From: Nitrosopumilaceae archaeon
GTDB taxonomy: Archaea; Thermoproteota; Nitrososphaeria; Nitrososphaerales; Nitrosopumilaceae
NCBI GenBank assembly: GCA_965200155.1
Contig: CBDATR010000024.1
Coordinates: 256,001-320,000, forward strand
DNA: 64,000 bases
Reading direction: 5' to 3'
Shown piece by piece: positions 18,503-47,280 of this stretch; position 1 is the first letter of the stretch; each line of letters opens with the position of its first letter. Made by a program: the position numbers and the translations under genes. A model generated the notes under the pieces. It did not search any database. It saw only the letters and a list, made by a program, of their open reading frames with translations, and had not been told where the DNA came from.

Positions 18503-19488
18503 TCAAGCATACCGTTGAACTCTCGCAGGAATGAGCGCATCTTGTTCTTGGGTATAAGGGCGCCGCATGCACGATCATGTCCGCCACCGGACCCACCCAT
18601 GTTGGCTGCAAGAGTGTTCACCATACGACCCAAGTGTACCTCACATTTACGGGATCCGCGAATGGATACAGCATAGTTGTTATAATCGGCACGCTCCCTG
18701 TATGCTACACCAACCTTCTTGCCTGACAGGCCCAGGACAAAATTTACTGCGCCGCTGGCACCGGCGTCGGTTATTTCCATATGAGCAAGGTTTCTCATCT
18801 TTCTGTGATCGCGCTTAACCTTGTCCATAACGATGGCCAACCGTTCCACCTGTAGCCGGGCAGTGTCAAAGGCCCCCGGCATCTCGTGAGGGAATCTCAG
18901 CTCAGCAAGCTGTAATGCCAAGTTCAGAAGATACTCATCATCCTTCTGGTGCCCAACTATATTGTAGGTCAGTACCGTGGCGCTTATCAACGCGAACTGC
19001 CTGTCATATATCTGCAACAAATCCGAGGCCAGGGGCCGGTCATCCATGTAGTCGGTAATGGCAGAACATGCCGCGATAAAGGTGGATCCAAAAGGAAGTC
19101 TTCTCTTATACTTGTCATGAACCAGGACCGCGGTGCATTCATCAGTGCTGTGTATTACATTTACTTTCATCTGTAGAAGTCGCTGCATCGAGTCCGAGTC
19201 CAGGTCATGGTGATCAAAATACGTCACCCGAACATGGCGACGCCTTAGGCCCCCCAGGATGTCCAGGAATAGTTCTTTATTCTTCTTGCTCACGCCCAAG
19301 TCGCATATGTACAGTGACTTTAGAGTGAGATCCGCAGCTACATCAAGAAGAGCATTCATTTGGCCCACATAATCTACCAGTACAAGATCAGCCCCAAAGA
19401 CCTGCCGGATGAGAGCGGCGGACCCTATCCCGTCCATATCTTCCTTGTGCGAGATGCACACTATTCGGGTCTTTTTTACCGGTGCCAA
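18493..19488 (-). CDS. DHH/DHHA1 family phosphoesterase
   Basis: H..DMDG, DLG, DHH and GGGH..ACGA motifs. Confidence 0.88.
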   Translation of the reverse strand: MAPVKKTRIVCISHKEDMDGIGSAALIRQVFGADLVLVDYVGQMNALLDVAADLTLKSLYICDLGVSKKNKELFLDILGGLRRRHVRVTYFDHHDLDSDSMQRLLQMKVNVIHSTDECTAVLVHDKYKRRLPFGSTFIAACSAITDYMDDRPLASDLLQIYDRQFALISATVLTYNIVGHQKDDEYLLNLALQLAELRFPHEMPGAFDTARLQVERLAIVMDKVKRDHRKMRNLAHMEITDAGASGAVNFVLGLSGKKVGVAYRERADYNNYAVSIRGSRKCEVHLGRMVNTLAANMGGSGGGHDRACGALIPKNKMRSFLREFNGMLDQL

Positions 19489-19938
19489 TTGAATACGGCA
19501 GAAGGCGCCCTCATTTAAACTAGATTCGGGGCGTCAATCATTTAGGTCATCTTTGGGCAACTGTGCAAAATACACCGCCAACATGTCTGTTCTTGCTTTT
19601 TCTATCATGGTGCCTCACACATACCCATGAATTTACCGTCTAGGTGTTTATCTTTAACGCGACCTAAACGGCTACGGCGTCATATTCAGGCATGGTAACG
19701 CACAAGAGCATCGCTACCGGTAACTGCTGATGTCTATTCCTTCATTATACAGTTTGTTAATGCCAACTTCCCGCACCATTCGTCTATTTGGGATCTATCG
19801 TACCAGCCCCACAGTTCTCGCACACCTAACTCATCACATAACCGACCTCATGTATCATGTCATGCCTCTGTGAGTTGTCACACCAAGACCACAACTCTTT
19901 GATGCCAATCTCATTTCCAACATGAGCATAATCAAACT

Positions 19939-20045
19939 GAGCCCGCAGGGAATTCTGCTGGACCCAATCGCACCCAGGTAACCATTCTTGGAATGATGCG
20001 CCAATACAGGAGCCCGCAGGGAATTCTGCTGGACCCAATCGCACC
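19939..20045. repeat. Exact 36-bp direct repeat flanking a 35-bp unique insert
   Basis: gagcccgcagggaattctgctggacccaatcgcacc at 19939-19974 and 20010-20045. Confidence 0.95.
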
Positions 20046-20347
20046 AGCCCCACACACGACCCACACCAATCTCGTTTGCGAGATGGCAAGAGCCAAATTT
20101 CTCCAGTATTGAGTCCTTATGTATGCGGCTGGCGCCATCCCACATGTGCCCCATACTGATCTCTTTTGAAAGACGTTCATAATCATAGCCCAATTCATTC
20201 AACATATCACTCTGACGAGAGCTAACATACCAAGACCACAACCGCACCATACTTATCTCTCTGATGAGACGCGAATAGCCAAATTTGGCCACCATTGTCC
20301 CCTTATGGATATCGGTGCAATGGACCCAGAGACATCATACCTATCTC

Positions 20348-20448
20348 GTATGAGTTCACCTGTGTCTAAATTTACGCACAACTGATGGAACAGGTTGTTC
20401 TAGTTAATGTGATTTGTGCATAAGATTCCGGAAGACGTGAACTCATAC
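20348..20448 (-). mobile_element. 101-bp MITE variant B, copy 4
   Basis: 12-bp TIR; TSD cctatctc; central agaacaacctgttcc replaces gtcgcg. Confidence 0.95.
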
Positions 20449-21098
20449 CCTATCTCGGCCACGGCACGATCATAACCTATTTCATCTAGCAGAGTATTCT
20501 TGTGCTCTGCGCTGAACCAATCCCACAACTGCTTCATGCCTATCTCATTTGCAATGCGGGTATAGCCAACCTCCTTTAACATGGAATTACGTTTGTTTTT
20601 GAACCACCGACTATTGCACCAATCCCACAGCTCCTCCACACCTATTTCATCTGCAATACGTGTGTAGCCAACCTCCTTCAGCACGTTTTGTTTTTGTCTT
20701 TCATCACACCAGTCCCATAATTGCCTCATACCCAGTTTATTTCCAACACCCAGATCTCTGAGTTCAGCGTAAATATCCATACCCATTATGACCTGCGGCA
20801 TTATTAAAAAACAGTCATGAAATCTTGTACGCGCGTAGTCGGCAGTGATTGTTTAGTTTACCGCAAGCCAAGGCGACATACACTTTTGCCATCATTAGTG
20901 GATTCCGATACATATAGAATTGTCTGGGAAATTTGTGTGTCCGGGTAACACAGTAGTACTGAGGGCGACATCATCCCAGTATACTGTAAGAGCGCGTCAG
21001 GGCGCCGATCTCAGGCGTGTAAATTAGCCCGACATCCATCTGGCACGTCCACGCGCCTAAATCTGGAATGGTTAAACAAGCACACCGCCACACTAGTA

Positions 21099-29926: not shown

Positions 29927-30027
29927 GCATGAGTTCACGTCTTCCGGAATCTTGTGCACAAATCACATTAACTAGAACAACCTGTTCCATCAGTTGTGCG
30001 TAAATTTAGACACAGATGAACTCATAC
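29927..30027 (+). mobile_element. 101-bp MITE variant B, copy 5
   Basis: TIRs with single mismatches; TSD gaattgtt. Confidence 0.93.
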
Positions 30028-46343: not shown

Positions 46344-46845
46344 AATCGGGATGTGTGGTTGGTGCTTAAGTGATCGTACTGCCTAAACGGTTTAACTGGT
46401 ACGTGAACTCAAGTTTGTTGTATAATCAAGTTACGTTGAAAAATTGCACTGGTGACAATAGTTTGTACATTTCCATCAGTGACAGTCATTAGATCCAAGT
46501 CAATAGTACGAAAAGTAAGTCCGCTTAGGATCCGGCGTACAGTAGTTCAGATTGCACAAGCCATATGGTAAAGAGAATAACAGAGGAATCAAGACAAAAG
46601 AGGCGTTGCCACAACCAACATAGCTCAAGACCCGAAACAAGACACGTACGAAGATTGTGAACCAGAGAACGGGAACTACTCGAGTAAAGATGGGCAGGCC
46701 CATGATACCAATCACCGCCACCCAGATACGAATGGTAACTGAATCATACAGCAAGGATCCCGCCGGAGTAGTACGTATTGCAAAGAGGCTTAGACATGAT
46801 ACATATCGCGCAGTATATCGCATAATGAAAAAGAACGGTACGGCA

Positions 46846-46955
46846 GGCTCATCACCTGCAAAGTCAGAGTGGGTACGCTATGCTGACTTGCTTGGTGCAC
46901 GATTCCATGCCGCTGCTCGGCTCATCACCTGTAAAGTCAGAGTGGGTACGCTATG
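46846..46955. repeat. 37-bp direct repeat (1 mismatch) flanking a 36-bp unique insert
   Basis: ggctcatcacctgYaaagtcagagtgggtacgctatg at 46846-46882 and 46919-46955; single copy in the paralogue at 4282-4318. Confidence 0.95.
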
Positions 46956-47280
46956 AGCGTAAATATTCCAATGTGGCACGTAGACTGGCATGTCATGAAA
47001 GATGAGCGCTTCAAGGGACTGAATCTCATAGATGATGCATCCAGGTGTATAGTCGGAGCGGCACTATTTGAGCATGCAACCTGAGAACGCCACTCTATTA
47101 CTGAGACTGGTAATGAAACGATTCGGCGACCCTGCATCTCGGATAACGGCGCGTGTTTCGTAGGACAATAAAAGGGCAAAAAGAACTGGAAACCCACTAT
47201 TCTAGGAAGAACTGCTGGATCAAGACATCATACTAATCAATTCCAGACCATGCCACCCGCAGACAAATGGCAAACTGGAG

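Follow-up and report, generated by a model that had tools for sequence, protein, structure and literature searches.

How a short gene of a sponge-symbiotic archaeon came to hold two identical 36-nucleotide (nt) sequences around a 35-nt insert is the question raised by positions 19939-20045 of the window analysed here, the 64,000-nt stretch C24:256001-320000 of the assembly G000. This is a metagenome-assembled genome of 2.38 Mb in 51 contigs (C9, C10, C24, C35, and so on), 87.6% complete with 0.39% contamination; positions given without a contig label are those of the window. We consider, with a probability of roughly 0.9, that the locus represents the off-target integration of a self-derived spacer by Cas4/Cas1-Cas2, the integrase of the genome's own type I-G CRISPR system. 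The features of the locus, including the open reading frame (ORF) pieces of the broken gene, are as follows.

19939..19974, plus strand: pseudo-repeat copy 1, host coding sequence, identical to copy 2 at 36/36 positions; the leader-side copy once oriented like the canonical repeat
19975..20009, plus strand: inserted 35-nt spacer, a copy of self DNA with a match on contig C35
20010..20045, plus strand: pseudo-repeat copy 2, putatively a target-site duplication made by gap repair, identical to copy 1 at 36/36 positions; run X9 joins 19938 to 20010
19826..20295, minus strand: disrupted small repeat-protein gene, in two overlapping ORF pieces split by the 71-nt insertion

The two 36-mers were 100% identical with a start-to-start distance of 71 nt and the insert at 19975-20009 between them, exactly as described, down to the letters of the insert, in an earlier note on this DNA. 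The 36-mer at 19939-19974 is unique in the genome except for its own duplicate, and the insert has no inverted repeats. The disrupted gene is built of repeats of about 34 amino acids (aa) with the pattern W-x-W-C ... E-I-G, and its pieces lie at 19855-20295 and 19826-20089 on the minus strand. The in silico removal of the 71 nt at 19939-20009 joined both pieces into one ORF of 145 codons from stop to stop, or 132 aa from the first Met, which reads ...VWGWCDWVQQNSLRAQFDYAHVGNEIG..., in agreement with the earlier proposal that such a deletion restores the protein repeat and that the repeated 36-mer is host coding sequence. In the allele carrying the insert (filled allele), the frame is shifted after ...NSLRA, the 71-nt insertion being a frameshift. 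An intact paralogue is present at 20400-20801, and more paralogues are found on C10; a Pfam search returned no family for the protein of the disrupted gene or for that of this intact neighbour. When an empty site was sought in other species, the disrupted gene was missing from the relatives, and the neighbouring gene alone was matched.

Support for the duplication was sought in the contigs of four public runs from four studies (X1, X5, X6 and X9; Logan contigs), which were compared over 19400-20600. The filled allele was present in the contigs of X1, X5 and X6, that is, three runs from three studies, at most one of which can be the source of the assembly. The unitigs of these runs end where the 36-nt repeat and the 33-nt second copy of the insert, its source on C35, would split a 31-mer graph, and a 95-nt unitig of X6 connects repeat 1 with repeat 2 by way of the insert. 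In X9, a single contig of 537 nt matches 19552-19938 and 20010-20159 without any difference and leaves out exactly 71 nt; the position of its junction is ambiguous over 36 nt, which a single repeat copy would lead one to expect. The X9 contig is the pre-integration (empty) allele, and the gene was broken recently enough for the empty allele still to circulate. Recurrent targets inside G000 show empty forms, too, the repeatedly hit 36-mers being mostly single-copy at their 66-85 loci.

A search of the insert against the genome identified a single source, C35:35830-35864, which matches at 34/35 positions, with 33 nt being 100% identical at C35:35864-35832 (minus strand). The 12-nt flanks on either side of the source and of the insertion site are unrelated. 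The insert is a cut-out copy of DNA in the organism's own assembly, with no demonstrable foreign origin; it gave 0 exact matches in viral_contigs and matched none of the 287 spacers of the CRISPR array of the genome. The term foreign in the earlier note is, therefore, correct with respect to the gene and has to be given up with respect to the organism. C35 may be chromosomal or a mobile element, a Pfam search of its ORFs having given only fn3/Ig-type domains or nothing. The possibility of an assembly artefact, or of a duplication by replication slippage or template switching with filler DNA, is raised by the nature of the data, a short-read metagenome assembly in which repeats longer than the word size break the graph. 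Such an origin is, however, opposed by the filled allele in the contigs of three runs from three studies, including the 95-nt X6 unitig, by a filler that copies a distant locus on another contig with dissimilar flanks and not nearby sequence, and by the 48 exact cases at periods of 71-75 nt with a sharp onset at 36 nt described below, which an artefact would not give. We regard it as exceedingly improbable. The two refutations foreseen in the earlier note, a duplication not borne out by other data and an insert copied from nearby, did not materialise.

The sole CRISPR array of G000 (C9:71011-92087) consists of 289 repeats of 36 nt, 287 of them exact, and of 287 spacers of 34-44 nt (16 of 35 nt, 85 of 36 nt, 101 of 37 nt, 63 of 38 nt and 15 of 39 nt). 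Its leader was assigned to the low-coordinate side because the last repeat copy has 4 mismatches. The gene directly upstream of the array encodes a 549-aa fusion of Cas4 and Cas1 (Pfam: Cas1, 3e-91; Cas4, 1e-18), which scored 710 bits against the NCBIfam model Cas4g/Cas1g (cut-off, 560) and was aligned over its full length to 7mi4, the solved fusion of Geobacter sulfurreducens (E 1e-147); the alignment shows the Cas4 D..EYK nuclease motif and the Cys clusters to be conserved. It is followed by a 91-aa Cas2 (Pfam E 1e-18), and a type I-G Cas3-extension protein, Cas3g, Csb2 and Csb1 were identified downstream of the array with Pfam and NCBIfam. All of the type I-G specific models scored above their curated cut-offs, the set being Cas4/Cas1, Cas2, Cas3g (with a C-terminal HD), Csb1 (Cas7g) and Csb2 (Cas5/6g); judged by these models, the resident system is of type I-G. 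Csx17 (Cas8g; TIGR04113) was not found in G000 at its completeness of 87.6%, and the same model finds it in the relatives G009 and G001; this absence bears on interference and not on integration. The intact Cas4/Cas1 and Cas2, the 36-nt repeat and the spacers of 34-44 nt fit the event at 19939-20045 and lend support to ectopic spacer-like integration, the first of the two options offered in the earlier note. The assembly contains exactly one Cas1 and no second one, and, therefore, no casposase, the other enzyme considered in that note. As for the repeats themselves, the canonical repeat, which was found in 0 other genomes in a search of genome_contigs, forms an 8-bp hairpin (-14.3 kcal/mol, z -2.85), and the fold of the same-strand pseudo-repeat at 19939-19974 is no more stable than that of shuffled sequence (z -0.08). 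The unit at 19939-20045 does not qualify as a functional array, both of its copies being host coding sequence without the canonical fold. Two irregularities were seen in the array, namely, the identity of the adjacent spacers sp159 and sp160 and one repeat-to-repeat distance, at 75391, of 93 nt compared with the usual 70-80 nt. In the effector operon (C9:92104-98717), the 'Cas3-extension' protein lies beside Cas3, and an insertion sequence (IS; DDE_Tnp_4) is located after csb1.

The event at 19939-20045 had been described as isolated, which was not borne out. A scan across the window for direct repeats of at least 22 nt and at most 120 nt apart gave three families, which were a protein-repeat pair, the event at 19939-20045 and the following second one.

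46846..46955 (C24:302846), plus strand: second putative off-target integration in the window, with a 36-37-nt duplication containing 1 mismatch, a 36-37-nt insert and a period of 73

It lies inside a short ORF (46657-46956, plus strand), and no other copy of its insert was found in the G000 assembly. Genome-wide, 48 exact repeats of 34-42 nt in direct orientation were counted outside the array at the five periods of 71-75, compared with 45 over 106 other periods (30-140), an excess well above chance. Their exact lengths at periods of 71-75 set in sharply at 36 nt (34 nt, 1; 35 nt, 1; 36 nt, 17; 37 nt, 20). A mismatch-tolerant scan of the assembly for isolated units with a repeat identity of at least 32/36 yielded 81 raw units at periods of 70-76, compared with a mean of 1.9 per period elsewhere. 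After 13 of the 81 rows were left out as tandem or low-complexity (C9:12515, C10:347796 and 347832, C29, C32, C33, C35:29695, C38 and C40), 68 units were kept, representing 62 unique inserts at 49 distinct target sequences. The repeat copies were identical at 36/36 positions in 46 of the 62 events. The inserts were 35 nt (3), 36 nt (27), 37 nt (18), 38 nt (8) or 39 nt (6) long, a range limited by the scan window, and their mean length of 36.8 nt did not differ from that of the canonical spacers, 37.0 nt (Mann-Whitney p = 0.15). Neo-arrays of 3-4 repeats were present at C9:70404, C24:237593 and C24:500844.

Four recurrently hit 36-mers occur at 66, 85, 75 and 67 loci in G000, the most often hit family lying in an IS66-family transposase ORF and another adjoining an IS1595 transposase. 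This bears on the explanation that the locus is a remnant or mini CRISPR array delivered by a mobile element, with no insertion into host sequence, as some units elsewhere in G000 sit in multicopy elements, such as those of the IS66 family, and have been copied along with them. At 19939-20045, this explanation is contradicted by the single-copy allele without the insert in X9, and against it stand also a 36-mer that is unique but for its own duplicate and is in-frame coding sequence of the host gene and, across the series, 49 target sequences that are all different; delivery as a mini-array is thus extremely unlikely. As separate observations, G000 is rich in multicopy elements on many contigs (e.g., C34:19810-20010 and C24:460667), and C24:352098-352297 is a local hot spot that was hit by two independent integrations; their 36-nt targets have about 16 nt in common and were offset from each other by about 21 nt in the original sequence.

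The origin of the inserts was compared with that of the canonical spacers. Another match in the genome was found for 39 of the 68 ectopic inserts, and 31 unique inserts with a genome match lack flank similarity. Exactly one other match of at least 30 nt was present for 23 of the 62 unique inserts, 18 of which were 100% identical. By comparison, 1 of the 287 canonical spacers matched the genome outside the array, and its match was the ectopic insert at C25:4796, which shares 26-28 nt with canonical spacer 58, from which it is offset; both, therefore, come from the same foreign DNA. We infer from this that the integrase samples self DNA heavily and that autoimmunity clears self spacers out of the real array. 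At pseudo-repeats, which are not real CRISPR repeats, the insert is, therefore, probably not made into CRISPR RNA (crRNA), so that a self-derived spacer can persist; this is supported at 19939-20045 because the real repeat folds into its hairpin and the pseudo-repeat does not. The self-protospacers were concentrated on C10 (540 kb), which holds 14 of the 23 single-match sources, spread from 28 kb to 479 kb, compared with 5.2 expected (p = 9e-5). Integration targets were not enriched on this contig (15 vs 14.1 expected). The terminus region of replication, a higher copy number or a separate replicon are possibilities for the excess of sources. The source on C35 is flanked by GAG upstream and ATA downstream and has no TTN, the protospacer adjacent motif (PAM) of the Geobacter type I-G system. 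The upstream bases of the self-protospacers, oriented by repeat likeness, showed no pattern, and the overlapping canonical spacer pairs sp138/sp178, sp13/sp271 and sp99/sp254 showed no TTN.

For the analysis of target choice, each pseudo-repeat was oriented for its best match to the real repeat, random genomic sites were treated likewise and one representative per target was used (n = 49). The targets resembled the repeat at 12.8/36 positions on average, compared with 11.4/36 at 30,000 random sites (p = 5e-6), and shared a sparse motif consisting of T3 (29/49), C5 (27/49), C11 (29/49), C12 (24/49) and C26 (27/49), with a fraction of about 0.29 expected. Aligned in register, the 36-mer at 19939-19974 and the canonical repeat agree at 14/36 positions, among them C26 and the CCGCAG of repeat positions 5-10, and this site was probably chosen for its weak likeness to the real repeat. 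A palindrome was rejected as a target feature, with 1.84 pairs at the canonical hairpin positions compared with 2.01 at random sites.

The positions of the events show signs of selection. Sites within ORFs of at least 150 aa, restored where necessary, accounted for 19/62, compared with 63% of 1500 random positions, and periods divisible by three (72 or 75) accounted for 33/62, compared with 35% expected from the array spacer lengths (p = 0.003). The value of 63% for random positions itself suggests genome erosion. Within 10 kb upstream of the array, 5 events were present, compared with 0.26 expected (p = 8e-6), and there were none within 10 kb downstream; this clustering is a sign of action in cis. 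Two of the five constitute the 3-repeat neo-array at C9:70404-70588, which has two self-derived spacers (sources on C10 and C24) and a 36-mer that covers the end of cas4/1, with its final codons and stop, together with the TTG start of cas2. Both ORFs are intact there because the duplication regenerates both gene ends. The cas4/1-cas2 junction is single-copy in the relatives G005 and G006, and their near-overlap of stop and start has been lost in G000, which might change the ratio of Cas2 to Cas4/1. Three off-target insertions on the same contig (C9:62508, 64790 and 65224) lie in or beside fragments of genes for a HaeIII-like restriction endonuclease and a D12 methyltransferase, both of which are truncated compared with the Pfam models.

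Three congeneric species (G003, G005 and G006) were scanned in the same way, each in a 400-kb sample. G003, which has no Cas4/1 match, gave 0 genuine events in 400 kb, its matches at periods of 72 and 75 being tandem or protein repeats, and G005, with a Cas4/1 of 59% identity and an array, also gave 0 events. G006, with a Cas4/1 of 66% identity, a 36-nt repeat and its own I-G system, gave three candidates, all with a period of 72.

G006, C1:867871: candidate unit, 36-nt duplication identical at 36 of 36 positions, 36-nt insert
G006, C1:1037483: candidate unit, 36-nt duplication identical at 35 of 36 positions, 36-nt insert
G006, C1:1129538: candidate unit, 36-nt duplication identical at 35 of 36 positions, 36-nt insert

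No second copy of these inserts was found in that genome. In comparable pieces of G000, 13 and 12 events were counted; the phenomenon is, therefore, strongly developed in G000, and one relative perhaps has it at a low level. Among the relatives, G009 and G001 have the cas4/1 gene split into three and two pieces, respectively, and in G006, G001 and G004, additional short stretches of the cas1 3' end are found at a distance of a few kb.

Catalysis by the resident Cas4/Cas1-Cas2 would account for the observed geometry, the source of the insert, the empty allele and the genome-wide pattern in a genome whose integrase genes are intact. In the proposed mechanism, the integrase would capture a fragment of about 35 bp of self DNA from what is now a locus on C35 and, at a non-CRISPR site, attack both strands at points 36 bp apart, the distance at which it acts across the real 36-bp repeat. 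Gap repair would then duplicate the 36 bp on both sides of the insert, and the resulting 71-bp insertion would frameshift the small repeat-protein gene.

Several points weigh against this interpretation. The cas locus (C9) and the window (C24) are on different contigs of a metagenome-assembled genome. The empty allele was seen in a single contig at a depth of about 2, in Logan contigs instead of raw reads, and, with a 36-nt repeat longer than the word size of the assembler, it would go unseen in any run that contains the filled allele as well. At 37 nt, exact repeats (20) are slightly more numerous than at 36 nt (17), beyond chance extension, and the stagger may, hence, not be strictly 36. The likeness of 14/36 between the site and the real repeat is weak, and no leader-like motif was found upstream of the targets beyond a z of about 2 at two positions. 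TTN was present beside self-protospacers, on either side, in 9/24 cases, compared with 22.8% of 20,000 random sites (p = 0.075), a comparison made with the Geobacter motif, which may not be that of this system.

The indirect nature of the assignment to Cas4/1-Cas2, a PAM signal short of significance and a weak target motif leave room for a different short-DNA insertion process, the second option of the earlier note, in which another integrase or a repair pathway independent of Cas1-Cas2 would insert fragments of about 36 bp with a 36-bp duplication. Such a process would have to match the length of the resident repeat and the length distribution of the spacers by coincidence, and further requirements would be a preference for the same base positions of the repeat, clustering at the array and a protospacer region in common with a canonical spacer. 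Given, in addition, that the assembly has no second Cas1 or casposase and that 400 kb of the Cas1-less relative G003 contained 0 events, we consider this process very unlikely, and integration by the resident Cas4/Cas1-Cas2 remains the explanation that we prefer.

Target duplications made by IS are usually shorter than 15 bp, and those of casposons are about 14-15 bp; both flank kilobase-sized elements that carry their own enzyme. The events in G000 resemble them in that a direct target duplication flanks the inserted DNA, and differ from them in the length of the duplication (36 bp), in an insert of 35 bp without inverted ends, in that every insert is different and in the absence of a casposase. 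Insertion of an IS, transposon or casposon was ruled out on these grounds, namely, the 36-bp duplication, the 35-bp insert without inverted repeats, the 62 differing inserts and the lack of a second Cas1.

A closer parallel is the off-target ('neo-CRISPR') spacer integration with repeat-length duplication in Escherichia coli over-producing Cas1-Cas2 (Nivala et al, 2018, as presented in PMC7054753, 10.1101/148544 and PMC6698737). That work used type I-E with transformed oligonucleotides, and, according to 10.1101/148544, the natural evidence is circumstantial only and comes from two other species. G000 is like E. coli in that a spacer-sized fragment enters a non-CRISPR site with a repeat-length duplication, and the ability of E. 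coli neo-CRISPR sites to take further spacers is paralleled by the neo-arrays of 3-4 repeats. In contrast to that E. coli work, the type I-G system of G000 is a natural archaeal one, about 62 events are fixed or segregating in this single genome, and many of the inserts are self-derived, some inside genes and one with an observed empty allele.

In vitro, the off-target sites of Pyrococcus furiosus Cas1-Cas2 have specific repeat features (PMC6698737), and Thermotoga profunda Cas1-Cas2 integrates off target without HU (PMC13769266). The repeat-like features and the kept attack distance of these sites parallel the T3/C5/C11/C12/C26 motif and the 36-nt stagger in G000. Those studies used plasmid assays with purified proteins, whereas the products in G000 are genomic and have passed through selection, and no host fidelity factor was identified in G000.

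Among type I-G systems, the G. sulfurreducens module selects TTN in 50-80% of spacers (PMC6547450), and in Methanosarcina barkeri, PAM-less, fully processed prespacers integrate without orientation control, some substrates going to nonspecific places (PMC10504553). The G000 system is like both in its fused Cas4/Cas1, its Cas2 and its predominant spacers of about 36 bp (PMC6547450, PMC10504553 and PDB 7mi4), and it is unlike the TTN-using Geobacter module in that its off-target inserts have no significant TTN (9/24). We speculate that PAM-less fragments may feed the off-target route, which would be compatible with the Methanosarcina data. Off-target acquisition is also one proposed origin of isolated arrays, as stated in PMC13142298, citing Shmakov et al (2020). 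Our literature search found no natural genome with dozens of such events, with the qualification that Nivala et al (2018) and Shmakov et al (2020) may contain related natural cases.

The kind of event described here is already known, and what is unusual and useful is a natural genome-wide series of about 62 with a contrast between self and non-self relative to the true array. The evidence tips somewhat toward the view that the type I-G integrase acts as a chronic, genome-wide insertional mutagen in this sponge symbiont, with more than 60 misplaced spacers that break genes, add in-frame insertions of 24-25 aa and seed mini-arrays and with the DNA next to the array hit 20-fold above expectation. 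If this is true, sites without crRNA would keep a selection-free record of naive adaptation, in which about half of the captured DNA is the cell's own, taken preferentially from C10 and mostly without a PAM, and CRISPR adaptation in nature would, through off-target integration, carry a real cost in fitness and drive the erosion of genomes. With about 62 natural events and their exact junctions, the insertional mutagenesis of host genes, a long-suspected cost of immunity, becomes countable. The series also reveals, without an experiment, the 36-bp ruler of a type I-G integrase and the targets that it prefers, and shows the possible birth of new arrays. Furthermore, the comparison of unselected inserts (at least 23/62 self) with the selected array (1/287) provides a natural measure of the purging of self-targeting spacers. 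The series addresses the natural frequency and cost of off-target integration, a process demonstrated so far with over-produced Cas1-Cas2 in E. coli and in test tubes.

Between the broken gene and its intact paralogue lies an element of about 100 nt with inverted ends (20348-20448), which resembles a miniature inverted-repeat transposable element. It has about 20 copies in G000, and in sponge metagenome runs, its summed contig depth reaches about 230,000, compared with about 50-100 for its flanks.

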